The translations under genes were made by a program, and so were the position numbers. This document shows, one piece after another, positions 1 to 60,172 of a DNA stretch of 64,000 nucleotides; the first letter of the stretch is position 1, and each line of letters begins with the position of its first letter. Origin of the DNA: an uncultured Lentisphaeraceae bacterium (GTDB taxonomy: Bacteria; Verrucomicrobiota; Kiritimatiellia; RFP12; DVOR01); NCBI GenBank assembly GCA_949282555.1, contig CASDPK010000003.1, positions 6,865 through 70,864 on the forward strand, read 5' to 3'. Under the pieces are notes generated by a model. The model saw nothing but the letters and a program-made list of their open reading frames with translations. It did not search any database and was not told where the DNA came from.

Positions 1-2049
1 ATTCGGAATATCGGCATCGTCGCCCACATCGACGCGGGCAAGACGACGACAACCGAACGCATCCTCTTTTACGCCGGCATGACCCACCGCCTCGGCAATG
101 TGGACGAGGGGAACACGGTCACGGACTGGATGATTCAGGAACGCGAGCGCGGCATCACCATCACGTCGGCCGCGATCACCTGCGCGTGGCGCGGCACCCA
201 AATCAATCTCATCGACACTCCCGGACACGTCGACTTCACCATTGAGGTCGAGCGTGCGCTTCGTGTTTTGGACGGGGCGGTGGGGGTGTTTTGCGCGGTG
301 GGCGGGGTGCAGCCGCAGTCGGAGACGGTGTGGCGGCAGGCCAACCGTCATCACGTGGCGCGCATCGCCTTTGTGAACAAGATGGACCGCATGGGGGCGG
401 ATTTCGCCCGCGCGGTGGCCGAGATGCGCGAGAAGCTGGGCGCGAACGCGGTGGCGGCGATGTTGCCGGTGGGCGCGGCGGAGACGTATGCCGGGGAGAT
501 CGATTTGATTTCGATGCGCCAACGGCGCTATCTGGACGCGGAAGGCAAGACCTTTGAGGATGTGCCGGTGCCCGCGGAGATGGCGGCGGAGGCCCAGGCG
601 GCGCATGAGGCGCTGTTGGAGGCGTTGGCGGAGGTGGATGAGCCCTTCATGGAGGCTTATCTGGAGAATCCCGAGCAGGATGCGGCGACGGTGCGGGCGG
701 CTTTGCGGCGCGCGGTGATCGCGCAGACGTTGGTGCCGGTGCTGTGCGGTTCGTCGCTCAAGAATCGGGGTACGCAGGCGCTGCTGGATGCGGTGGTCGA
801 TTATCTCCCCTCCCCGGATGAGCGGCAGGCGCCGGTGGGCATCCATGTGCGGACCGAGGCGCCGACCGAGGTGGAGATGGCGGTGACGGCGCCGCTCTCC
901 GCGCTGGTCTTCAAAATCGCGACCGATCCTTATGTGGGGCGGCTCTTCTTCGTGCGCGTGTATGGCGGCACGTTGAAGAAGGGGCAGAACGTCTACAACC
1001 CGCGCACCCGCAAGCGTGAGCGCGTGATGAAGCTGCTGCGCGTGAAGTCCGACGAGGAAGAGGAGCTGGAGACGCTCGGCGCCGGGGACATCGGCGCGGT
1101 GGTGGGCCTGAAGGAGGCCACGACGGGCGACACGCTCTGCGCGGAGAATCAGCCGGTGGCCCTGATGGGCATCACGGCGCCTGAGCCGGTGATGTTCATG
1201 GCCATTGAGCCGAAGAGCACGGCGGAGAAGGACAAGCTGGCCGCGGCATTGGGTCAGCTGGCCGCCGAGGACCCGACGTGTCAGGTGAGAACCGACGCGG
1301 AGACGGGACAGATGATTTTGTGCGGGATGGGAGAGCTCCATTTGGAGATTCTCGTGGACCGCCTGAAACGCGAATTCAATGTGACGGCGAATACGGGCAA
1401 GCCGATGGTCTCTTATTATGAGACCGTGTCGGCGGTTGCCCGCCGGACGTATACGTTCGATCGGGAGATCGCGGGGCGGCGCCATTGCGCGACGCTCACG
1501 CTGGAGGTCTCCCCGCTCGAACGCGGCAAGGGAAGGCAGGCCGCGGTTGCCAAGTCGGTGACGAAGCGCTTGCCAAAACCTGAGTATTCTGCTATCATCA
1601 CTGACGCTTTATTGGACGCAATAGCGACCGGCGTGCTGGCACGCTTCCCGATGACCGACGTGCGAGCGGAAGTCGTCGATTGCGCCCTATTGGACGAAGA
1701 GACGGCTTCGGACGTGGCTTTCAGAAGCGCGGCCGTAATGGGATTCCGGGAGGCGGCCATGGCCGCGCAGCCCGAATTGCTGGAGCCGATCATGTCCCTC
1801 GACATCGTGACGCCGCCTGAGTACGTGGGCGACATCATGGGGGACATCAACGGCCGCCGCGGCCAGGTGCGTGACATGGAGATGAAGGGTGACCTTCAGG
1901 AAGTCCACGCGCTGGTGCCTCTGGCGGAACTGTTTGGGTATGCCACGGCGATCCGTTCGCTCTCGCGCGGACGAGCCAGCCACACGATGGAGGCCGGCGC
2001 GTTCGCGGTGGTGCCCAAAACGGTCAAGGAAGAACTACTCAACAGGTAA
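1..2049 (+). CDS. fusA: Elongation factor G, 5'-truncated at window edge
   Basis: Frame is open from nt 1. N-terminal GTPase motifs ([17 protein letters not shown]) and the rest of the translation match EF-G. Stop TAA at 2047-2049. Confidence 0.93.
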
Positions 2050-2056
2050 TGTGAGA

Positions 2057-2365
2057 ATGCAAAGTCAGCGCATACGCATTCGCTTGCAGGCGTACGACCA
2101 CAAGGTGCTGGATCAGGCCGTGGGTGCCATCCTCGACACGGCCCGCAGCACCGGCGCCCAGATCGTGGGCCCGATCCCGCTCCCGACCCGGGTTGAGCGT
2201 TTCACGGTGAACCGCTCCCCGCACGTGGACAAGAAGTCCATGGACCAGTTCGAGATGCGCACGCACAAGCGTCTGCTGGACATCGTGGGCCCGACGGCGA
2301 AGACCGTCGATGAGCTCAAGAAGTTGAACCTGCCTGCCGGCGTGGACATCACGATTCGCATCTAA
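2057..2365 (+). CDS. rpsJ: 30S ribosomal protein S10
   Basis: ATG at 2057. Translation [19 protein letters not shown]... matches S10. First gene of the S10 operon. Confidence 0.95.
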
Positions 2366-2370
2366 GGAGG

Positions 2371-3012
2371 ATGACCATGCAAGGCTTGATTGGCAAGAAA
2401 ATCGGCATGACCCAGATTTGGGACGACAACGGCGTCGCGGTTCCCGTGACGGTCGTTGAGGTCGGTCCCTGCCCTGTCGTCCAGGTCAAGACCCTCGAGA
2501 AGGATGGCTACGCGGCCGCTCAGCTCGGCTTCGAGCCCCAGAAGGCGCAGCGCCTCTCCAAGGCCGAGCGCGTCCGTTTCGAGAAGGCGGGCGTCGAGAC
2601 CCAGAAGGTCCTTTCCGAGTTCGCCCCGGACGCCGCCGATGAGGTGAAGGCCGGTGACGTTCTCACCGCTTCCGTTTTCGAAGGCGTCGCGTACGTGGAC
2701 GTGCAGGCGACCACCAAGGGCCGCGGCTTCGCGGGCGTGGTGCGCCGCTTCCGTTTCGCCGGCGGCCCCCACGGGCACGGCGGTCACTCCAAGCGCCGCC
2801 CCGGCGGCATCGCGGCCCGTGACCTCCCCGGCTGGGTGGAGAAGGGCAAGAAGATGCCTGGGCACATGGGTTGCGTTGTGCGCACCACCCAGAACATCCG
2901 CGTGGCCAAGCTCGTTGCCGAGGAGAATCTCATCCTCCTGCACGGCGCGGTTCCCGGCCCCAACGGCGGCATCGTCCGTGTGACGAAGGCTCTCAAGAAG
3001 GCTTCCAAATAA
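2371..3012 (+). CDS. rplC: 50S ribosomal protein L3
   Basis: RBS aaggagg lies upstream. Translation MTMQGLIGKKIGMTQIWDD... matches L3. Confidence 0.95.
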   Translation: MTMQGLIGKKIGMTQIWDDNGVAVPVTVVEVGPCPVVQVKTLEKDGYAAAQLGFEPQKAQRLSKAERVRFEKAGVETQKVLSEFAPDAADEVKAGDVLTASVFEGVAYVDVQATTKGRGFAGVVRRFRFAGGPHGHGGHSKRRPGGIAARDLPGWVEKGKKMPGHMGCVVRTTQNIRVAKLVAEENLILLHGAVPGPNGGIVRVTKALKKASK

Positions 3013-3677
3013 TGAGCACGATCAAAGTTTACGACAAGACCGGCGCCGCGACGGGCGAGAAGACCGTCGATGGGGCGCAGCTCGTCCTCGACCGCGGCGA
3101 ACAGGCCGTGAAGGACACCGTCGTGGCCATCCTGAACGGCTACCGTGCGGGCACGGCCAAGACCAAGAACAAGTCCGAGGTCTCGGGCACCGGCAAGAAG
3201 CCGTGGAAGCAGAAGGGCACCGGCCGCGCCTCCTTCGGCAGCAGCCGCAACCCCGTGTGGCGTGGCGGCGGCGTGGCCTTCGGCCCCGTGCCCCGCGACT
3301 ACTCCCAGAAGGTGAACAAGAAGGTTTCCGCCCTCGCGTTCGCCCGCGCGCTGAGCGACAAGATTGCCTCCGGCGAACTCTGCGTCATCGACTCCCTGAA
3401 CTACGAGGAGCCGAAGACCAAGGTGGCCGCGGCCATGTTCAAGGCCATGGGCATCGAGCGTTCCTGCCTGGTGATCGTCGATGACGACGCGCTGGCCGGC
3501 GACGCGAACGACAACTTCTTCTTGGCGGTGGGCAACCTCCCCAACGTGGGTGTGGCCGCCGCCGGTGAGACCGACGTCTACATGCTCTGCCGCTTCAAGA
3601 ACATTGTGGTCACCGCCAAGGCGTTCGAGGCCCTTGAGGCCCGTTTGGCGCGCGTGACCGGAAAGGCGGACAAGTAA
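3012..3677 (+). CDS. rplD: 50S ribosomal protein L4
   Basis: ATG at 3012 overlaps the rplC stop. Translation MSTIKVYDKTGAATGEK... matches L4. Confidence 0.93.
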   Translation: MSTIKVYDKTGAATGEKTVDGAQLVLDRGEQAVKDTVVAILNGYRAGTAKTKNKSEVSGTGKKPWKQKGTGRASFGSSRNPVWRGGGVAFGPVPRDYSQKVNKKVSALAFARALSDKIASGELCVIDSLNYEEPKTKVAAAMFKAMGIERSCLVIVDDDALAGDANDNFFLAVGNLPNVGVAAAGETDVYMLCRFKNIVVTAKAFEALEARLARVTGKADK

Positions 3678-3678
3678 C

Positions 3679-3951
3679 ATGAAGACCATTATCCGCAAGG
3701 TTTCCGTGACCGAGAAGGGCACCCTGATCGGCGCGAAGAACCAGTACATGCTTGAAGTCGCGCCCTCCGCGACCAAGCCCGAGATCCGCACGGCGGTGGA
3801 ATCCCAGTTCGGCGTGCACGTGTTGAGCGTGAACACCGCGAACTACCGCAGCCGCACCGTCCCCACCCGCACGCGCCGCACCACCCAGACCCAGGCCTGG
3901 AAGCGTGCGATCGTGACGCTGCGTGACGGTGAGCGTATCGAAATCGTCTAA
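3679..3951 (+). CDS. rplW: 50S ribosomal protein L23
   Basis: Translation [15 protein letters not shown]... matches L23. Confidence 0.93.
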
Positions 3952-3974
3952 CACTGCCAAAGGACACCCTATCT

Positions 3975-4799
3975 ATGGCACTGAAAAGCTATAAGCCCCG
4001 CAGCTGCGGCATGCGCTTTCGCGTCACCCAGGTGCGCACCCACCTCTCCAAGGAGAAGCCGGTTGCCCACCTGACGCTCGCGAAGAACGGCTGCGCCGGG
4101 CGCAACAACCAGGGCCGCATCACCGTCCGCCATCGCGGAGGTGGTGTGCGCCGTCGTTTCCGCATCGTGGATTTCCTCCGCGACAAGCATGGCATCCCCG
4201 CGAAGGTGGCCGCCCTCTGCTATGATCCCAACCGCACCGCGAACCTGGCGCTCCTGAACTACGCCGACGGCGAGAAGCGCTACATCCTGGCCCCCGAGGG
4301 CTTGAAGGTGGGTGCGACGGTCGTCTCCGGCCCCGAGGCCGAGCCGACGGTGGGCAATGCCCTTCCGCTCGGGAAGATCCCGCTGGGCATGGCGCTGCAC
4401 AACATCGAACTCGTGCCCGGCCGCGGCGCGCAGATGGCCCGCTCCGCCGGTTGCAGCTGCACGCTCATGGCCCGCGCCAACGGCATGGCCACCCTGCGCT
4501 TGCCTTCCGGCGAAATCCGCTTGGTGCCCTGCGCCTGCATGGCGACCATCGGCGTGGTGGGTGAGGGCGATTGGTCGGGCGTCAAGCTCGGCAAGGCCGG
4601 CCGTAAGCGCCACTTGGGCATCCGCCCGACCGTGCGCGGTGTGGCGATGAACCCGGTGGATCACCCGATGGGTGGTGGTGAAGGCCGCACCTCCGGTGGC
4701 AGCCACCCCCGTAGCCCTTGGGGCAAGCTCGCCAAGGGCGGCAAGACCCGCAACCGCCGCAAGAACAGCAATCGCTTCATCGTCAAGCGGAGAAAGTAA
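3975..4799 (+). CDS. rplB: 50S ribosomal protein L2
   Basis: Translation [17 protein letters not shown]... matches L2. Confidence 0.95.
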
Positions 4800-4805
4800 T
4801 CCACT

Positions 4806-5084
4806 ATGGCACGTTCGATCAAGAAAGGCCCCTACGTCGAGTCTTCCCTTCTTCGGAAGGTCGAGAAGATGAACGCTTCGGGCAAGAAGTTGCCGATCAA
4901 GACCTGGTCGCGCCGCTCGATGGTGCTTCCCGAGTTCGTCGGGCACACCTTTGCCATCCACAACGGCAAGCAGCACATGCCGGTGTTCATCACCGAGAAC
5001 ATGGTTGGGCACCGTTTGGGCGAGTTCTCCAACACCCGCACCTTCAAGGCCCACGGCGGCCTCACCGAGAAGGCTGGCCGCTAA
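4806..5084 (+). CDS. rpsS: 30S ribosomal protein S19
   Basis: Translation [19 protein letters not shown]... matches S19. Confidence 0.95.
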
Positions 5085-5090
5085 GGAGGT

Positions 5091-5429
5091 ATGACCATGG
5101 AAGTGAAAGCCATCGCCCGCAACCTCCGCATCTCTGTGCGTAAGGCCCGCCCCATCGCCCGCCGCGTGCAGGGCCTGAAGCTCGCCGACGCGCTCGCCGT
5201 GGCGGACTTCAGCCCGCTCAAGGCCGCAGGGTTCCTCGCCTCCGCGTTGCGCTCCGCCGCCGCGAACGCCCGGAACAACAACAATCTCGACCCCGAGACG
5301 CTGACGGTCAAGAAGGCCGTCTTCGACGAGGGCGCCCGCATGAAACGCTATTGGTGCGGAGCCCGCGGCAGCGCCAAGCCGATTCAGAAGAAGCTCAGCC
5401 ACCTCACCGTGGTGCTGACGAACGAGTAA
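5091..5429 (+). CDS. rplV: 50S ribosomal protein L22
   Basis: RBS ggagg lies upstream. Translation matches L22. Confidence 0.93.
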
Positions 5430-5443
5430 ACCAGGAGTCTACC

Positions 5444-6133
5444 TTGGGACAGAAAGTCAACCCTATCGGCTTCCGCATTGCCCTGAACAAGCAGTGGCAG
5501 TCGCGTTGGTTCGCCAAGAAGCAGGACTTCGGCCTGAACCTGGCCGAGGACACCAAGATCCGCGAGACCGTGCGCAAGGCGATTGAAGGCGCCGCCATCA
5601 CCAAGATCGGCATTGAGCGCTTCGCCAACCGCGTCCGCGTGGTCATCTTCTCCGCCCGCCCCGGCGTGATCGTCGGGCGCAAGGGCCAGGACGTCGAGAA
5701 GCTCAAGGCCACCTTGGCCAAGAGCACCGGCAAGGAAATCTACCTGGACATCCAGGAGGTCCGCACCCCCGACGCCGACGCCCAGCTGGTGGCCGAGAGC
5801 ATCGCCCAGCAGATTGAGCACCGCATCGCCGTGAAGCGCGCGATCAAGCGCGCCGAGAAGACGGCGATGGAGCTCGGCGTGGACGGCATCAAGATCCGTT
5901 GCTCGGGCCGTATCAACGGCGCTGAGATCTCCCGCGTGGAGTGGAGCAAGAAGGGCAAGGTGCCCTTGCATACGCTGCGCGCCAACATTGACTATGGCTT
6001 TGTGGAAGCCAACACCACCGCCGGCAAGATCGGCGTGAAGGTGTGGATCTGCAAGCGCGACGATTTCCAGCCTGCCCGCCAGACGCGCGGCGGCGACCGT
6101 GGAAGGAGGAATTCTTATGCCTCTCATGCCTAA
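5444..6133 (+). CDS. rpsC: 30S ribosomal protein S3 (TTG start inferred)
   Basis: Conserved S3 N-terminus [10 protein letters not shown] begins at TTG 5444, 6 nt after RBS caggag. The longer upstream ORF extension overlaps rplV. Confidence 0.85.
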
Positions 6134-31947: not shown

Positions 31948-32075
31948 AACAATCCTCTCTTCGGCGATTATAGCACAAGCCAATGGCGCGCTTGTGCGGC
32001 TATTCCAGAATGGCCGACCAAATGACAAGGGGCGGCGCGGAGGTCGCGTCGCCCCTCTTTGATTCTGTTCAGACC

Positions 32076-45291: not shown

Positions 45292-45365
45292 TGCCTCGTG
45301 GTGTAATGGTAGCACAACTGACTCTGGATCAGTTTGTCAAGGTTCGAATCCTTGCGAGGCAACCA
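45292..45365 (+). tRNA. tRNA-Gln (anticodon CTG)
   Basis: Manual fold. Acceptor TGCCTCG/CGAGGCA. D-arm GTGT-AATGGTA-GCAC. Anticodon stem ACTGA/TCAGT with loop CTCTGGA. T-arm CAAGG-TTCGAAT-CCTTG. 3' ACCA. Confidence 0.8.
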
Positions 45366-49957: not shown

Positions 49958-51247
49958 TCAAAGCCCAGCTTCAAGCCGTTGCTTCACGGTGGCAAGATCG
50001 GTTTCGGCCGGCGCGGCCCCCGAGCGCACGGCGGCCTCGGCCACCGCGTAGGAGACGACGGCGTACAGACGGCGGTCAAACGCCTTGGGAATGATGTACT
50101 GCGGGCCAAACGTCAGGTTCTCTTCGGGATACAACGCCTGCACATCGGCGGGGACGGGCTCACGCGCCAGCAAGGCCAACGCATTGGAAGCCGCCACCTT
50201 CATCTCGGTGTTGATCGTGCGGGCGCGCACATCCAACGCCCCGCGGAAGAGGAAGGGGAAGCCGAGCACATTGTTGATTTGGTTCGGATGATCCGAACGC
50301 CCCGTGGCCATGACGTAGGGCCGCCCGGCCAACGCCTCCGCGACGACGGCGGGCTCAATCTCCGGGTCGGGGTTGGCCATCGCGAAGATGGCGGGGAAAT
50401 CGGCCATCGCCTTGACGTCTTCGCCGGTGAGCACGCCTGCGGCCGAAACGCCAATGAACACGTGCGCCCCCACAAGGGCCTCCTTCAACGTGCGGCACTC
50501 CGTCGCGACGGCATGGCGGCGCTTGTGCTCCGTGAGATCGGTGCGGTCGGCATGGATCACACCCTTGGAGTCGCACATCATGAGGTCACGCACGCCGGCC
50601 GCCTTGCACATGTCGGCAATGCGGATTCCGGCCGCGCCTGCGCCGTTGATCACCACACGCACGTCGGCCAACGCACGGCCGGTGAGGTGGGCGTAGTTGA
50701 TCAGCCCCGCCACGGTGATGACGGCGGTTCCCCACTGGTCATCGTGGAAAACCGGAATGTCCAACTCCTCGTCCAGCACGCGCTCAATCTCAAAGCACGC
50801 CGGGGCGGCGATATCTTCGAGGTTGATGCCGCCATACATCGGCGCGATGGCGCGCACGGCCTCAATCACACGCTGCGGATCGGTTTTGCCCGTATCCTTG
50901 CCGTCCTTCCGGCAGTGCGCCAACGGCACCGGCCAAGCATCCACCCCGGCAAAGCTCTTGAAGAGCGCCGCTTTCCCTTCCATCACGGGGATGGAAGCCG
51001 CGGCCCCCAAATCCCCCAAACCCAAAATCGCCGTGCCATCGGAGACAACGGCCACCAGATTGCGCTTGCTGGTCAGGTCAAAGACGGTTTCAGGCTTCGT
51101 GGCAATTTCCTTTACGGCCTGCGCCACGCCCGGCGTATAGGCCAAGCAAAGATCCTTCTGCGTCGCAAGCGGCTTGGACAATGCCACACGCACCTTGCCC
51201 CCGTCATGAAACGCAAACACCTCTTCCTTCGTGATCTGAACGGCCAT
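49958..51247 (-). CDS. NAD(P)-dependent malic enzyme
   Basis: MAVQITKEEVFAFHDGGK... with malic-enzyme NAD-binding motifs. RBS gaggaaagga lies upstream of ATG 51247. Confidence 0.9.
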   Translation of the reverse strand: MAVQITKEEVFAFHDGGKVRVALSKPLATQKDLCLAYTPGVAQAVKEIATKPETVFDLTSKRNLVAVVSDGTAILGLGDLGAAASIPVMEGKAALFKSFAGVDAWPVPLAHCRKDGKDTGKTDPQRVIEAVRAIAPMYGGINLEDIAAPACFEIERVLDEELDIPVFHDDQWGTAVITVAGLINYAHLTGRALADVRVVINGAGAAGIRIADMCKAAGVRDLMMCDSKGVIHADRTDLTEHKRRHAVATECRTLKEALVGAHVFIGVSAAGVLTGEDVKAMADFPAIFAMANPDPEIEPAVVAEALAGRPYVMATGRSDHPNQINNVLGFPFLFRGALDVRARTINTEMKVAASNALALLAREPVPADVQALYPEENLTFGPQYIIPKAFDRRLYAVVSYAVAEAAVRSGAAPAETDLATVKQRLEAGL

Positions 51248-51304
51248 GGCCAAAATCCTTTCCTCTAGGCGGAACTTGAAGCAAAACAAGTCCGCACAGT
51301 ATAG

Positions 51305-51437
51305 CATATTGAGGGGATGGTAACCTTGGTCGTTTTGGGGCGAAAGGTTGGGTGAATCGTTCACAACGGTGTTGCGCACTTCTAGAGCCGAAGCGAAGGA
51401 AGAGAAAAGATGGACGGGCTTTGGGCAAAGCAACGCG
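51305..51437. repeat. Direct repeat copy 1 (~133 bp), 5' of the malic enzyme gene
   Basis: Near-identical (2 substitutions, 1 indel) to 52163..52296. Contains the palindrome GTGAATCGTTCAC. Confidence 0.9.
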
Positions 51438-51441
51438 TTGT

Positions 51442-52095
51442 TCACTTAAACCATCGACAAAGGGTGTGACACGTGCGATAACGGGGATCAACCGCGGGGG
51501 CATTGTGTTTGACACGTATCTCAAATTCCGCTCGCTTGATGATTGCCACATCTTCCTTCGTTATGGAGTGAAAGAAAACAAACATCACATTTGCATGCCC
51601 ATCATAGAGCGCGGAGCGTATCAGGCAGAGATCCCATCGATTGCTAGGTTGCCATGTGCAATAGGAGGCAAACTCACCTTTGTAATTCTTCAAGTATGAG
51701 AGCAAATCGTATTCGCGTCGGATATGAAATAACTTATTGTCTACACAAACTCTGCGATCCGTGAGAAGATAGGTCGTGTTCCTCAGGTTGAGAAAGTTGA
51801 AAAAGGAACATATAAGGCAAAAGCCTCCCAATCCTGTCACAAGGATTGCCATAGAGCGAATTTGGATGGCGAACGTCAATTCAAAACAGGCGACCCAAAT
51901 CAGCGCGAGGCCAATGGTCGGGAAAAGCAACATACTCCATCGCAGATACACCTTATGGGGGCGCCCCTGCCAATACACGACCTCGTCCGAGGCGATTGCG
52001 ACCTCCTTCCAAGGCTCTCCGCGAGATGTCCGTATGAAATGCTTAAATAGCTTTAACCGGGGAGACCAAGACCATTCGCATCGATGCAGCGTCAT
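51442..52095 (-). CDS. Bacterial PH-domain (bPH_2/YdbS-like) membrane protein
   Basis: Two TM helices followed by a PH-like domain with YLLTDRRV. The gene is low-GC. Confidence 0.6.
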   Translation of the reverse strand: MTLHRCEWSWSPRLKLFKHFIRTSRGEPWKEVAIASDEVVYWQGRPHKVYLRWSMLLFPTIGLALIWVACFELTFAIQIRSMAILVTGLGGFCLICSFFNFLNLRNTTYLLTDRRVCVDNKLFHIRREYDLLSYLKNYKGEFASYCTWQPSNRWDLCLIRSALYDGHANVMFVFFHSITKEDVAIIKRAEFEIRVKHNAPAVDPRYRTCHTLCRWFK

Positions 52096-52162
52096 AACAC
52101 CTCCTATCTAGTACAACCTCTTTCCATCGTGATACGAAGCAAAACAATTTCATACGATATCA

Positions 52163-52296
52163 CATATTGAGGGGATGGTAACTTTGGTCGTTTTTGGGGC
52201 GAAAGGTTGGGTGAATCGTTCACAACGGTGTTGCGCACTTCTAGAGCCGAAGCGAAGGAAGAGAAAAGATGGACGGGCTTTGGGCAAAGTAACGCG
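52163..52296. repeat. Direct repeat copy 2 (~134 bp), 5' of the bPH_2 gene
   Basis: See copy 1. Confidence 0.9.
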
Positions 52297-52306
52297 GGAC
52301 GGCTCT

Positions 52307-53482
52307 CTACAACTTTGGCCTTGTCGCGAAATCGCTGTAGGGTTCATAGTCGTTAACCGTAAAAGCGATGCTATAGCATTTGCGCCCTAGGTCATCTATT
52401 GTGTGTTCATTGGTGATTTTGACGGAGTCAATGCCGTAAATGTTAAGGTCCTCCATCGTAACGAGGGTGCCTTCGGCTTTACGAAGTACTTGACGCAAAA
52501 GCCATTTCCCAAGTGCGGCATTGGGGGCGCTCATTAGTGCCTTGGAGCCCTCTTGGCAAACTTTTGCTGTAAGGACTTCGCCGTGAGGAAGGCGAAGAGC
52601 GAAGTGTTCATCGCGTGGCGGAAAGAAGCCTGGGTGGAGTGTATGGATTCGTTTGGGAATGGGAATATAAACCTCGTTAAAGTCACGCGGGCGTCCCTCT
52701 GCGTTCCATTGGTTAAGCCCACTTCGTTCCGGAACACTAGGTAACTTTCCGCGTGTGCTATAAAGTGGGAGAATGACATAGTCTTTGGGAAGAGTTTTTA
52801 TAGGGAGATAAGGCGATGATTTTTCCCCTCTGAGAACAGCAAGCAACAGTCGTAACGGGTCTTCAAGGATGTTTACCGGAATTGGGACTGTTCCAACTGT
52901 TGGGACGTGGAACCGTTTTAAGAGAACGCTCTTACTTCGATTGAAGTTGTACTCATTTTTACCGTCATCAAAAGTAATCCCCGCAGTATTCGTCTTTGTG
53001 ATACAAAGTGCGTTGAGGTCTATTGGTTCATAAGGAACATTAAAAAGAAGTAAACCTCCTTCGGTGCGCCCAACGATATGATAAATACTTTGAGTGGTTT
53101 TATAAATGTTGTCTGCGGCTTGAATGCGCGTATTGCGAAAGGAACCAAGTTTTCGGGCGAGATCAAGACCGTCGAGTGGGTCAAGTTCAGCCTTGAGCTT
53201 ATTGAATTCTGCCACCTTTTCAAAAGAGGGGGCCGCCTTGAGAAGAAAGGTTTTGATGCCAACGCCTAGTGAGCCGATCCTTGCGTCATAGGCTGTACAT
53301 GATCGGGCATCGTTGATGGCTTGGAAGAATGTACAGAAGAGATTTTCCGTGAGGCGATAGTCAAGGAAGGGCTGTGAACTTTCCGAAAAGAGTTTAGAAA
53401 GGCTGGCCAGTGCACGAAGTGCATCGAAATAGGGTGCATTCGTTTGCCAAGTGGAAAGAAACTCCTGTGCGGATGGTTTCAC
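52307..53482 (-). CDS. Putative type II restriction endonuclease (cognate of the adjacent m5C MTase)
   Basis: 391-aa low-GC ORF. GTG start overlaps the MTase stop (GTGA). No recognisable family motif. The call rests on position only. Confidence 0.4.
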   Translation of the reverse strand: MKPSAQEFLSTWQTNAPYFDALRALASLSKLFSESSQPFLDYRLTENLFCTFFQAINDARSCTAYDARIGSLGVGIKTFLLKAAPSFEKVAEFNKLKAELDPLDGLDLARKLGSFRNTRIQAADNIYKTTQSIYHIVGRTEGGLLLFNVPYEPIDLNALCITKTNTAGITFDDGKNEYNFNRSKSVLLKRFHVPTVGTVPIPVNILEDPLRLLLAVLRGEKSSPYLPIKTLPKDYVILPLYSTRGKLPSVPERSGLNQWNAEGRPRDFNEVYIPIPKRIHTLHPGFFPPRDEHFALRLPHGEVLTAKVCQEGSKALMSAPNAALGKWLLRQVLRKAEGTLVTMEDLNIYGIDSVKITNEHTIDDLGRKCYSIAFTVNDYEPYSDFATRPKL

Positions 53483-54702
53483 GATAGCTCCATCACTTTA
53501 AGCATTTCGGCACAGACTGCCTGAACGAGAGGAACAACCACGGAGTTCCCTGCTTGTTTGTATTTGGCGGATAGGGGAATAGTTTCTGGGAAGTCATAGT
53601 TCTTGGGAAAGCCTTGGAAGTTAAGGCATTCTTTAGGGGAAAGCTTGCGGATAAGGTTGTTCCGAATAATCAGCGGGACATTGTGCCCCCCGGTTCCCAT
53701 ATTTGCCGTAAGCGTTGGACAAACGTGGCTTTGATTTTTACGAACATACTGTCGTCGCCACTGATAAATGCTATTAGGATCGATTATCTCTTTCCGAAGT
53801 TCCTCGAAGTGTGACATCGCTTCCGTGTAAACAAGCCGCGGATCTTTAAGTTGGGCATCGATACAGTCATGAATGGTTCGTGTAAGTAGTTGTTTTTTAG
53901 GGAATTGAAACGTATTACAACGTGGAACTCGCATTGGATCAAAGCAGATGATAAAGAGCCGTTCACGGTTCTGGGGAACGTTCGCATACACCATTGCATT
54001 CATCACCTTGTGAAAGACGCAATAGCCCAGTTGGCGGAGTGTTCGGTGAATAACTTCGAACGTTTTACCTCTATTGTGGGAGGTAAGGTTCTTCACATTC
54101 TCCAAGAAGACAGCCTTTGGATGTTTGGTCTTGAGAATCTCAGCGATGTCATAAAACAGTGTCCCTCGCGTGTCATCAAACCCTTTTTGATAACCGGCAA
54201 TAGAAAAGGGTTGGCATGGAAATCCCCCGAAAAGGCAATCGAATCCTTCGGGGATTGCCGCCTTGGTCTCCGCGTGGGTAATATCACCATATGGTACCTC
54301 ACCGAAGTTATGGCAATAGGTCTTTTGTGCATTGATGTCAAACTCGGAGGAAAAAACACACCGCCCACCGAGTGCTTGTGCCGCCAAGCGAAAACCTCCG
54401 ATTCCCGCGAAAAGATCAACGAACATGAATCGATTTTCCGTCGGACGAAATGGCGCATCCTGCCGTTCAAAGAGACCTTCTTGGACGTTTATCTGATGTA
54501 ACGACTGAAAGTGTTTTTGGGGCAACTTTTCAATAGGTATATTTGAGGCTGTCGCTTTCTTTTCCAATGTGTTGGATTTTGAATCGGAAATCAAACAGCT
54601 ACGCAGTAATTTCAAGTCCCCATGCTCATTCTGTTGGGTAGAAACCGAATGCGTGTTTTTTTTGCCTTTTACGTGTGGCCTTTGACCTCCCGAAGAAGAC
54701 AT
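53479..54702 (-). CDS. DNA (cytosine-5)-methyltransferase
   Basis: Motif I FAGIGGF, motif IV GFPCQPFS, motif VI ENV and motif VIII QNRERLF. 92-aa N-terminal extension containing an A8 run. Confidence 0.88.
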   Translation of the reverse strand: MSSSGGQRPHVKGKKNTHSVSTQQNEHGDLKLLRSCLISDSKSNTLEKKATASNIPIEKLPQKHFQSLHQINVQEGLFERQDAPFRPTENRFMFVDLFAGIGGFRLAAQALGGRCVFSSEFDINAQKTYCHNFGEVPYGDITHAETKAAIPEGFDCLFGGFPCQPFSIAGYQKGFDDTRGTLFYDIAEILKTKHPKAVFLENVKNLTSHNRGKTFEVIHRTLRQLGYCVFHKVMNAMVYANVPQNRERLFIICFDPMRVPRCNTFQFPKKQLLTRTIHDCIDAQLKDPRLVYTEAMSHFEELRKEIIDPNSIYQWRRQYVRKNQSHVCPTLTANMGTGGHNVPLIIRNNLIRKLSPKECLNFQGFPKNYDFPETIPLSAKYKQAGNSVVVPLVQAVCAEMLKVMELS

Positions 54703-54734
54703 AAAGGAGCCCTCCTAAGTCATACCAGACGAGG

Positions 54735-54826
54735 CCTTAGGACGAGCCCATGACGATATAACAAAGGAGGGCATAGGCGCACCTATGCCACACCAATGCT
54801 TGCCCGTCATACAGAGTGTCCTAAGT
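54735..54826. repeat. Nested imperfect palindrome at the high-GC boundary of the R-M island
   Basis: ccttaggac...atgacg...GGCATAGG-cgca-CCTATGCC...cgtcat...gtcctaag. Confidence 0.6.
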
Positions 54827-55030
54827 TCCGTCTGAGCAAAACATTCGTGCGTTAGCACAAAACAATCTTGTGGTTTTCTCTCCACAAGTGAGGCAAAGCA
54901 TATCATAGTGATGACTCCGAAGGCAAAAGGCTTATTTGACGACTTGGGAGCCCCTTTTGTACAATAAGCGCGGAAGGGCGACGAGTAAGGTGCTTTGTCG
55001 TTCCTTGCGCCAGTGCCGTTTTGGAGTGTT

Positions 55031-57164: not shown

Positions 57165-57205
57165 GGGGCCATTATAGCACGCGGCGGGCGCCGCGCCGCG
57201 TGTGT

Positions 57206-57769: not shown

Positions 57770-58069
57770 TATAGGTGGATTCTCGTGGGGCGGCAAGTTG
57801 GCCAAAGGGCGCCGTGGCGATTGGGAAGGCGCACGAGGGCCGTTGAGGAGATACGGAGCCTTTCAAGGGAAGACATAGTGCATCTCCACCAAAGATACGG
57901 AGCCTTCCGCATGGAGGCGCAGGGAAGGCTACGCCCACGGAGGCAAGGAAAACACACAATCCATTCCCTCTTTGCCGTATTGAACGGTATACACTCTGTT
58001 GTGCGGATGGGGATAGGTGTGTGGTACACTTGAATCGTCGTTCGTTCGGTGAAATGGAAGGAGTGCCAA

Positions 58070-58342
58070 ATGTTTCCAAAATTGTTGTTTTTCGTTTGGC
58101 GAATGGTGATGGACTTCTTTTTTGGGGTAGGCCTTTTTGTCTTTCTCTCGCTCTTGGGGGTTCCGCTGTTCTCGCAGGAGACGATTCTTGTCAATGACTC
58201 ATTCCTGTATGTCCTATTCGAGGCAGGGGGATACGCGGCCTTCTATCTGCTATTTGGGACATGTTGCGGTATTTTCGTTTGTTGCTTGGACTGTTATATC
58301 CTAATTTCCAAGAAAGTCATCGAAGGGGAGTGCGGAAAATGA
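58070..58342 (+). CDS. Small hypothetical membrane protein (2 TM, Cys-rich tail)
   Basis: RBS ggaaggag lies 6 nt upstream. The gene is low-GC. Confidence 0.5.
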   Translation: MFPKLLFFVWRMVMDFFFGVGLFVFLSLLGVPLFSQETILVNDSFLYVLFEAGGYAAFYLLFGTCCGIFVCCLDCYILISKKVIEGECGK

Positions 58343-58692
58343 AGGCATGTTTCTTTCTTCTCGGTGTATTCTTTGGTTTTGGCGTGTCGATGTTGTTTTT
58401 GTCATATCAGTCTTCCCGTTTGCCAACCGATCGTGAGAACCTTGCCACAGCCATTCTTTTGAGAAAAGACATTGCCCATATCGAGGCAGCGCATTCCCAA
58501 AAGAATGCACGCGACTATGCCCAGTGGACGTCCGTTTATTTTTCCGGTCGGACGGCATGGGGAGAGGTTTTGCCGCCGGTCATTCAAGACGCTACCTTTA
58601 CCTTACGTGTTCGGAAGCAATTGTATGAAAACGTTTCGCTTATTCTTGAAGGGACTGGCAAACTTCCTCCGAAGGATAAAGTAAGCCCGTAA
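58339..58692 (+). CDS. Small hypothetical N-terminally anchored membrane protein
   Basis: ATGA overlap with the previous ORF. RBS gaaggggag lies upstream. The gene is low-GC. Confidence 0.5.
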   Translation: MKACFFLLGVFFGFGVSMLFLSYQSSRLPTDRENLATAILLRKDIAHIEAAHSQKNARDYAQWTSVYFSGRTAWGEVLPPVIQDATFTLRVRKQLYENVSLILEGTGKLPPKDKVSP

Positions 58693-58870
58693 GGTGTGAA
58701 CGATTCTCCTCACGGTTGATTCGCCTCGGGGGCTCCATGGGGGCACGAGGGACTTGAGGTTTCTTTTGAGATGCCGACCTCGAACCGTGGAACGGTGAAC
58801 CACTGTTTTGATGCGTTTGCCACGGAAGCCTTCGGTTGCTTCGTTGGTCGGGAGGGAGGGGTGTGCTATA

Positions 58871-60172
58871 ATGGCGCCCATGCAATCCATTCATTTGATC
58901 GGCATTGGCGGGGTAGGGATGAGTGCCCTGGCGCAGGCGTTTTTGGACAGAGGCTGGCGTGTGAGCGGCTCGGATCGTCTGCTGGGGATGGGACAATCCA
59001 CCCCTGTCTTGGACGTGTTGCGCCGCGAGGGTGTGCGCCTGTTCCCGCAGGATGGGTCGGGCGTGGCGGAAACCTTGGATGGCGTGGTCTATTCCACGGC
59101 CATTGAGGCGGACAATCCGGACTTGCTGGCGGCGCAGGCGCGTGGTCTGCGGACGCTTCATCGCAGTGCCGCGCTTGCGTCGTTGGCGGAAGGGCATGAG
59201 CTGATTGCCGTGACGGGGACGTGCGGGAAATCGTCCGTGACGGCGCTTTTGGGGCACCTTTTGGCGGCGTGCGGACGCGATCCCTTCGTCGTGAACGGTG
59301 CGGAGGTCGTGGGGTGGGACGTCGGCGGCACGCGCGTGGGGTCTGTCCGCGCCTCCGCGCACGCACGGGGGCTCATGGTGGCGGAGGCCGATGAGTCGGA
59401 CAAATCGTTGATGGCCCTTTCGCCCACGCATGTGATTGTGACCAACGCTTCCAGTGACCACTTCCCGAAAGAGGAGGCGGAGCGGTTGTTTGGCGCGTTC
59501 AAGGCCAAGGCGCGCGGCATTGTGATTGACACTTCGGGGATGCCGCCCGAACCTTCGCCCGCCGGGGAGGGTTGGGAGGCGCGCTTCCGCTGGGAGGGGC
59601 GCGATTGGCGGTTGCCGATGCCGGGCGCGCACAATGTGGCGAATGCCAAGGCCGCGCTGGCCATGGCGTTGCGTTTGGGGTGCGACCCCGAGGCGTTGGC
59701 CGAGGCGTTGGAATCTTTCGGCGGGGTTCGCCGCCGCTTGGAGCGCACGGGGTGTTGCCGGGGGGCGACGGTGGTGGATGACTACGCGCACAATGTGGAG
59801 AAGCTCGCGGCGGCATGGACGACGCTCTCAAAGGCTTTCCCGCAGGGGGTCTTTGGCGTTTGGCGGCCCCATGGGTTTGCGCCTTTGCGCAAGATGATGG
59901 AGGGGCTCGCGGCCATGTTCAATGCCACCGTCCGCCCCTGCGATCGCCTGTTGCTCCTTCCGGTCTATGATGCCGGAGGCACGGCGGATCGTTCCGTGAA
60001 TTCGGGGGATCTGCTGGCGCGTCTCGTTTGCCCGGCGGAGGCTGTGGCTTCCTGGGCGGAGGCGGAGGATCGGTTGCGGTCGTTGGCTCGCCCCGGCTCT
60101 GCCGTGGTGCTTTTTGGCGCACGCGACCCGGAGCTCAGCGTGGTGGCCCATCGGCTTGGGCAGGAGGGTTGA
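58871..60172 (+). CDS. Mur ligase family protein (MurC/Mpl-like)
   Basis: N-terminal IHLIGIGGVGMS Rossmann domain. Central P-loop reads GTCGKSS. EADESD is present. Confidence 0.65.
   Translation: MAPMQSIHLIGIGGVGMSALAQAFLDRGWRVSGSDRLLGMGQSTPVLDVLRREGVRLFPQDGSGVAETLDGVVYSTAIEADNPDLLAAQARGLRTLHRSAALASLAEGHELIAVTGTCGKSSVTALLGHLLAACGRDPFVVNGAEVVGWDVGGTRVGSVRASAHARGLMVAEADESDKSLMALSPTHVIVTNASSDHFPKEEAERLFGAFKAKARGIVIDTSGMPPEPSPAGEGWEARFRWEGRDWRLPMPGAHNVANAKAALAMALRLGCDPEALAEALESFGGVRRRLERTGCCRGATVVDDYAHNVEKLAAAWTTLSKAFPQGVFGVWRPHGFAPLRKMMEGLAAMFNATVRPCDRLLLLPVYDAGGTADRSVNSGDLLARLVCPAEAVASWAEAEDRLRSLARPGSAVVLFGARDPELSVVAHRLGQEG

Follow-up and report, generated by a model that had tools for sequence, protein, structure and literature searches.

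Gene organization of the locus

The locus studied here lies on the minus strand of the window, i.e. the whole 64-kb stretch of DNA that was analysed and whose numbering is used throughout; its source is an uncultured gut bacterium of the Kiritimatiellia close to 'Candidatus Spyradenecus'. In minus-strand order, the locus consists of a C5 methyltransferase gene (54702-53479), the gene of an NgoFVII-like REase (53482-52307), one copy of a direct repeat (copy 2), an ORF of 217 aa, the other copy of the repeat (copy 1) and the malic-enzyme gene. The last of these (49958-51247, minus strand) is a core gene encoding 429 aa with the Pfam domains PF00390 and PF03949. The C5 cytosine methyltransferase (53479-54702) and the NgoFVII-like REase (52307-53482) constitute a Type II R-M unit assigned to positions 52328-54927 of the minus strand. 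From approximately 51270 to 55000, the GC content drops to 46-53%, compared with 63-66% in the surroundings. According to the Pfam domains of the DNA enclosed by the repeats and of its neighbours up to ~10 kb away, neither an integrase nor a transposase is present.

The boundaries of the R-M unit were drawn from homology: a sequence from another organism (L131) exhibits 80.7% identity over 52328-54927 only, and the right boundary is identical with the boundary of strain variation at 54924-54927. The last seven codons of the REase (..ATRPKL and the stop; window 52307-52327) fall outside the homology to L131, so that the tail of this ORF would have been supplied by the flanking DNA at the insertion junction. 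The methyltransferase gene contains a run of eight adenines (window 54659-54666, codons ~13-15), which is a run of nine in L013 and L018; the gene is frameshifted there, with the REase ORF remaining open, and the difference could be due to phase variation, to an inactive REase or to a sequencing error. The R-M DNA of L010 is identical to that of the window, the deposited gene calls alone being different. On its right side, the variable interval (boundary at 54924-54927) abuts the predicted promoter of the PTS_EIIA gene, TTGACG-18-TACAAT (54936-54965).

Further along the window, there is a second low-GC islet of 926 bp (57928-58853), which harbours, according to the deposited calls, two small ORFs of 90 and 117 aa and is absent from L126 and L128; in L129, a 690-aa ORF is found instead of this islet downstream of the acetyltransferase gene. 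The sole RNA gene detected in the window is that of tRNA-Gln (CTG) at 45292-45365.

Anatomy of the direct repeats

The preliminary description of this DNA, made from the sequence alone, reported two near-identical direct repeats of ~133 bp, at 51305-51437 and 52163-52296, differing by two substitutions and one indel. The alignment bears this out: the two cores (133 and 134 nt) show ~98% identity, with two substitutions and one single-base A/T indel. The length given there holds for the core, but the homology continues towards the genes through a divergent patch of 15 nt and a further 12 identical nucleotides, resulting in a unit of ~160 bp. The full units on the plus strand are thus 51278-51437 (copy 1, U1) and 52136-52296 (copy 2, U2), each consisting, in minus-strand order, of a core of ~133-135 nt—reading CGCGTT...CTCAATATG—followed by the 15-nt patch and by the 12-mer TTGTTTTGCTTC. 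In gene orientation (minus strand), U1 starts with CGCGTTGC, ends with TTGTTTTGCTTC and is located directly upstream of the malic-enzyme gene; U2, of the same orientation, begins 10 nt past the stop codon of the REase and is located upstream of the 217-aa ORF. Outside both ~160-bp units, the flanking sequences are unrelated to each other. The patch reads CTATACTGTGCGGAC in copy 1 and TGATATCGTATGAAA in copy 2, the two differing at 8 positions.

As had also been described, each repeat stands 5' of a gene of the minus strand, the core ending 58 nt from the ATG of the malic enzyme (51247) and 68 nt from that of the 217-aa ORF (52095), and the pair brackets a low-GC ORF (47.9% GC against ~64% for the malic-enzyme gene). 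More than 20 metagenomic contigs show the arrangement repeat-module-repeat; as they stem from different samples and were produced by several assembly pipelines, it is not an assembly artefact.

The 64-kb window contains no third copy of the unit. Exact searches gave no match for a 21-mer in the GTDB species representatives or for a 20-mer in the JGI metagenomes, both being poor probes that spanned the haplotype junction and lineage-specific SNPs, and none for an internal 22-mer from the distal part of the unit in the JGI metagenomes; an 18-mer yielded one match in IMG/VR, without flanking similarity and attributable to chance. Among the GTDB representatives, which do not include the source species, the malic-enzyme gene has a best match of 88%. 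A blastn comparison of the whole repeat-module-repeat segment with plasmids and phages returned nothing. In the malic-enzyme loci of 80 related species, neither the unit upstream of the gene nor a conserved synteny with the PTS_EIIA gene was found. Six-frame translations of the unit gave nothing convincing as a coding remnant.

In one sample (ERZ16268183), copy 1 is interrupted at window position ~51336-51344 by an insertion-sequence-like element (L015, 10761-10859; L005, 1-99) with the terminal inverted repeats ACAGGGCAAACGCATCTAA.../...TTAGATGCGTTTGCCCTGT and a target duplication of 7-9 bp, TTCGCCCC(A); both contigs, L015 and L005, terminate within the element.

The inserted module and its 217-aa gene

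The DNA between the repeats corresponds to a module of 709 bp (51435-52143, minus strand), which is composed of TTTGCTTC, a 40-nt leader with an AGGAGG ribosome-binding site, the 217-aa ORF (51442-52095, minus strand) and TAAGTGAACAACGC. Its first element, TTTGCTTC, precedes the ATG by 47 nt, and it closes with GTGAACAACGC immediately behind the stop codon. These ends are defined by the homology with copies in other organisms: the DNA identity reaches 93.7% in L130, over exactly 51435-52143, 84% in L024-L027, 78% in L022 and L023 and 73% in L028, and with L130, L024 and L028 no homology is left beyond 52143 and 51435. These ends agree with the inner limits of the two repeats (51437 and 52136-52147). 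The copies in the other organisms occupy unrelated contexts, and none of them (L022-L028, L130) is accompanied by the repeat unit. Since the contexts are unrelated, the ends match the inner ends of the repeats and the unit is missing from these loci, the segment between the repeats is, as judged from these homologies, a discrete, foreign and horizontally moving module. It forms a low-GC islet in another host, too (L022, 51% versus 65-70%). No flanking direct repeats were found around the module in the other organisms; a match of 43-60 nt in L028, considered as such a repeat, turned out to represent two paralogous lipoprotein signal peptides.

The 217-aa protein possesses two predicted transmembrane helices and belongs to a small uncharacterised family with a handful of relatives. 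The label 'bPH_2' assigned to it previously is unsupported: Pfam gives no match for the protein even at E<=10, and its remote relatives, which a profile search over 1.8 billion proteins brought up, are also without a bPH_2 match. Pfam, PADLOC, the profile search and AlphaFold2 were all uninformative with regard to a bPH_2 (PF03703) identity of the cargo, the AlphaFold2 model, with a pLDDT of 54, being too poor to use. The gene neighbourhood offers a lead: in L024, the homologue (919-1572) is positioned 12 nt downstream of a larger ORF (2-907) and near a 1296-aa RHS-repeat protein (1917-5804), and in L130 (283-732) the ORF upstream of the homologue contains a weak RHS repeat. Such an arrangement is characteristic of toxin-immunity pairs, so that the 217-aa gene may be an orphan immunity gene. 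The likeness to the orphan immunity genes of RHS and polymorphic toxins is that the homologues elsewhere stand beside or just after RHS-repeat ORFs; the difference is that the locus in the window has no toxin gene.

In the sample ERZ16268270 (L016, L111, L125), a 1-nt deletion at window position 51822 frameshifts the 217-aa ORF, so that at least one population can dispense with the gene.

Predicted promoter of the malic-enzyme gene and the altered patch

The unit carries the predicted promoter of the malic-enzyme gene, of the extended -10 type, which was recognized by phylogenetic footprint. The putative element, TGCTATACT (51298-51306, minus strand), is located inside the patch of copy 1 (51290-51304). 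The motif TGNTATACT matches once in the 64-kb window, against 0.09 matches expected. In all 10 closest related species, TGnTATACT is present 38-50 nt upstream of the ATG of the malic-enzyme gene, once as TGATACACT and once as TGGTATAAT, the upstream sequences of these relatives being otherwise unalignable around it. The element thus resembles TGnTATAAT, is suitably spaced from the start codon and is conserved in the orthologous upstream regions, as expected for a sigma-70 extended -10 promoter. TGnTATAAT itself occurs in the window as three exact TGCTATAAT motifs (31967-31975, 57171-57179 and 58864-58872; 0.12 expected), suggesting that extended -10 promoters are common in the source organism; the one at 58864 directly borders the second islet and falls on the called start of the Mur-ligase gene.

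Since the -10 element of the malic-enzyme gene lies inside the 15-nt patch, the block in which the two copies differ corresponds to the -10 box and the region of the start site. Transcription is predicted to start near 51291 for the malic-enzyme gene and near 52147 for the 217-aa gene. The divergent patch of copy 2, TGATATCGTATGAAA (52148-52162, minus strand), has GATATC as the hexamer aligned with the -10 box, and a shifted TGaTATCGT is possible there. In comparison with the native sequence, it has 7 identities, 6 transitions and 2 transversions; the probability of not more than two transversions in 15 random positions is ~0.004 (own binomial estimate). The same region matches the native sequence at 11 of 19 positions, versus 5 of 19 for the donor-type upstream sequence in L130. 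With so few transversions and the closer resemblance to the native sequence, the copy-2 patch looks like a heavily mutated native promoter rather than foreign DNA. It should be pointed out here that a simple duplication does not explain 8 differences within 15 nt beside 135 nt of 98% identity; selection on the expression of the inserted gene and error-prone synthesis at the junction are candidate causes of the cluster.

Strain haplotypes

Strain variants were represented by contigs that were found via the PTS_EIIA gene and extend across the low-GC region; they belong to the same species, their flanks being 97-100% identical. In the interval between the divergent core genes of the malic enzyme and PTS_EIIA_2 (window 51270-55030; L120-L129), this one species exhibits five haplotypes. 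Haplotype A contains a GDSL lipase gene together with a 382-aa gene (L120, L127, L129) and has a variant with the lipase only (L123); haplotype B combines the lipase with the 217-aa gene (L124, L128); haplotype C carries the R-M unit only, with a single repeat unit (L126); and haplotype D, represented by the window and more than 20 contigs, carries the R-M unit and the 217-aa gene with two repeat units. A comparison with genomes lacking the gene between the repeats, as proposed in the preliminary description, does reveal the empty site with a single copy: in L126, which is one contig from one sample and has no 217-aa gene, one unit joins the stop codon of the REase to the malic-enzyme gene.

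The unit itself is composite. In haplotype A, only its promoter-proximal ~75 nt (51278-~51353) are present upstream of the malic-enzyme gene; as they occur even there, these ~75 nt are shared by every strain, in contrast to the distal 84 nt (51353-51437), which are specific to some haplotypes. In haplotype B (L124, L128), the malic-side unit is complete, and the other copy ends at the strain-shared ~75 nt, where sequence of the lipase type follows. An assignment of the distal 84 nt to the 3' end of the R-M unit or to the 217-aa module was rejected: they lie outside the homology to L131 as well as outside the module shared with L130, L024 and L028 and are consequently neither R-M-unit nor module DNA. 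Probably, they represent older native intergenic DNA of the R-M haplotype. A strain with neither R-M nor lipase is predicted to have an empty interval of ~230 bp, reading ...AAGCCTTTT|GCGACAAGGCC...T84...malic.

The variants that distinguish the copies—an extra A at 51336 and G/A at 51325—also segregate among the single-copy strains. In L017, copy 1 carries the variants of copy 2, a pattern in which gene conversion or allele mixing between the copies is apparently seen.

Probable insertion with long target duplication

Taken together, the repeats are best read as two copies of the promoter-bearing segment upstream of the malic-enzyme gene flanking a foreign module of 709 bp, the product of an insertion with long target duplication; the probability of this reading is estimated at roughly 0.78. 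Such insertions were reportedly already a subject of Nobusato et al. in 2000. The present case is well explained as a real, non-random example of a kind of rearrangement that is already known, with a plausible provision of a promoter for an acquired gene.

Insertion with long target duplication, together with the criteria for recognizing it, has been described for R-M systems (Furuta, Abe & Kobayashi 2010, PMC2853133), the published cases covering Helicobacter, Haemophilus, Neisseria and other genera, with repeats from 46 to ~420 bp (PMC2853133). Four features from that work are found here. The direct repeats immediately flank the insert; the repeat aligns once in the same-species insert-free sequence (L126, one contig, for which an origin by deletion is possible); the duplication exceeds 30 bp, its core measuring 135 nt and the whole, with patch and 12-mer, 160 nt; and no integrase, transposase or prophage is involved, according to the Pfam domains of the insert and its neighbours. 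The presence of R and M genes within the insert, a criterion of the Furuta survey only, is not seen here, the R-M unit (52328-54927) lying outside the repeat pair. The resemblance to the published cases is thus in a foreign low-GC insert without a mobility gene, in repeats (here 135-160 bp) that far exceed the target duplications of transposons and in their single occurrence in a strain of the same species without the insert. The locus differs from them in that the insert is a single small non-R-M gene, with the R-M unit immediately outside the duplication, that the duplicated target is a promoter region, that substitutions are densely clustered on the -10 box of one copy, and that the host is an uncultured member of Kiritimatiellia, from a phylum not among the published cases.

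The way the repeats are built, the presence/absence polymorphism, the module's foreign origin with its discrete ends and the conserved promoter motif are observations; the sequence of steps, the way in which the duplication was generated at the molecular level and the activity of the promoter are inferred. The starting point would have been an R-M haplotype with one unit between the REase stop codon and the malic-enzyme gene, i.e. the state of L126. Insertion of the module, by which the unit ended up on either side of it, would then have created haplotype D. The inserted gene would thereby have come to stand behind a copy of the malic promoter region, with the malic-enzyme gene keeping the intact copy; the module itself would be without a detectable promoter of its own, considering that its homologues in other organisms directly follow a larger ORF. 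Subsequently, the -10 box TGCTATACT ahead of the inserted gene would have been changed, mostly by transitions, to TGTGATATCGT, which presumably alters its expression. A transfer of the module into the lipase haplotypes via recombination in the shared ~75 nt would have given rise to haplotype B, and the repeats, serving as homology, would enable the copies to recombine, with the module being lost, and also to undergo gene conversion as in L017. As for the polarity between haplotypes C and D, L126 could also have reached its single-copy state through a repeat-to-repeat deletion in an ancestor with two copies.

With regard to the way in which the duplication itself arose, a more specific version may be put forward, although rather doubtfully: a replicative template-switch insertion (break-induced, microhomology-mediated), in which the host promoter would have been copied in front of a promoterless immunity-like gene, the transitions in the -10 box would have been left behind and the repeats would act as portable homology arms by which the module could move among strains differing in their neighbouring cargo. 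Both the donor module and the native region upstream of the malic-enzyme gene contain TTTGCTTC, which may have been one point of template switch. If this were true, the set of haplotypes would help to explain mechanistically how long target duplications come about.

Alternative explanations

Among the alternatives, the one that survives best, although still unlikely, is that the two-copy haplotype was built by homologous recombination between pre-existing haplotypes and not by one insertion at the site. Two routes can be envisaged: a crossover in the shared ~75 nt between a haplotype with the lipase and the 217-aa gene and an R-M-only haplotype, or a Campbell-type integration of a popped-out circle consisting of the module and one unit. 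That recombination takes place in the population at this locus is clear; the existence of all four combinations of cargo would agree with this route, as would the segregation of the copy-specific variants (51336 and 51325) in single-copy strains and the exchange between the copies in L017. It only moves the problem, however, as an initial event that brought the module between duplicated sequences is needed all the same. The distal 84 nt, being part of neither the module nor the R-M unit, also speak against it; their presence beside the 217-aa gene in the lipase strains is most simply secondary. As to integration and pop-out of the Campbell type in particular, the locus is similar in its insert lying between direct repeats, in the existence of a single-copy state and in the exchange between the copies, but the process needs a circular donor that already carries the unit; none was found, and the module elsewhere is without the unit.

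The preliminary description had offered a duplicated promoter-operator module as one of its readings, in which a regulator recognizing GTGAA-N3-TTCAC would co-regulate the malic-enzyme and 217-aa genes. The promoter part of it stands, in so far as the unit does hold a predicted promoter whose motif recurs in 10 related species. Also the statement that each repeat contains the palindrome is correct: the perfect 13-bp GTGAATCGTTCAC is found at 51352-51364 and, in its second copy, at 52211-52223, each time upstream of a gene. The co-regulation, however, is unsupported and quite improbable. The palindrome is located ~50 nt upstream of the -10 box, where it straddles the end of homology between the lipase-type and R-M-type haplotypes, i.e. 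the junction of the strain-shared and haplotype-specific parts; at its position, L126 reads GCGAATCGTCCAC and the lipase-type strains an unrelated GGGCGTTCGCCCA, and it occurs upstream of the malic-enzyme gene in none of the 10 related species. By this comparison, the palindrome appears lineage-specific and is not conserved even among strains of its own species. The -10 cores of the two copies are different, so that the two genes do not stand under one identical promoter. The third site, an 11-mer at 58696 previously considered very unlikely to recur by chance, is at chance level: the unit has 12 different 11-mers that are also present in other parts of the window, and the palindrome with up to two mismatches has 3 matches there versus 1.4 expected. 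Nor is this site at the edge of an AT-rich islet as had been stated; it lies inside the islet 57928-58853, ~150 nt from the edge. The idea of the palindrome as a recombination site at islet edges was likewise discarded.

The reading of the repeats as scars of an inserted cassette was right with respect to the foreign module that they flank and to the single copy in L126, but not with respect to their nature as attL/attR. That they are the attachment sites of a site-specific integrative cassette (an integron-like attC or the target of another recombinase) is very improbable. Indeed, the repeats begin a few nucleotides after the stop codon of the preceding gene in a cassette-like layout of ORF plus repeat, and the module is found in several genomic contexts. 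Against this, the neighbourhood contains no tyrosine or serine recombinase and no transposase; the unit is absent from all the other contexts of the module, i.e. the repeat does not travel with it; no terminal inverted repeats are apparent on reading the aligned copies; the single-strand folding is not significant; and the repeat is local intergenic DNA, half of the unit being the native region upstream of the malic-enzyme gene that is present in all strains. The comparison with integron cassettes bearing attC leads to the same picture: an ORF followed by a repeat of ~130-160 bp and tandem co-oriented genes are features in common, whereas the locus has no integrase and no apparent attC-like architecture of inverted repeats, and its repeat is local promoter DNA shared with cassette-free strains.

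The two remaining readings are scarcely credible. A small structured RNA or cis-regulatory leader in two copies, the third reading of the preliminary description, would fit the location in 5'-regions and the few short hairpins predicted, but it finds no Rfam match at the gathering score or at E<=1, its folding z-scores of -0.94, -0.03 and -0.76 do not stand out from the shuffled controls, no homologue was found in related species, and most of the unit is upstream of the predicted -10 element and hence would lie outside the transcripts of the malic-enzyme or 217-aa genes. A dispersed REP- or MITE-like element that landed twice has nothing in its favour beyond the existence of two copies, against which stand the mere two copies in 64 kb, the lack of terminal inverted repeats or short target duplications apparent on reading the aligned copies, the lack of a homologous copy in the collections scanned (GTDB species representatives, JGI metagenomes, IMG/VR, plasmids and phages) and the many short-read assemblies that read through both copies.

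Significance

The intergenic region between the malic-enzyme and PTS_EIIA genes represents a hot spot for strain-specific cargo, which comprises the R-M system, the lipase, the orphan membrane protein and the IS element. The practical consequences are modest. Read as an insertion with long target duplication, the locus would be a natural example of this rearrangement outside the cultured Proteobacteria, in which the phenomenon was defined, with all the intermediate haplotypes present in one population. With the promoter region on both sides of the insert, a promoterless acquired gene could become expressible without the downstream core gene being silenced.
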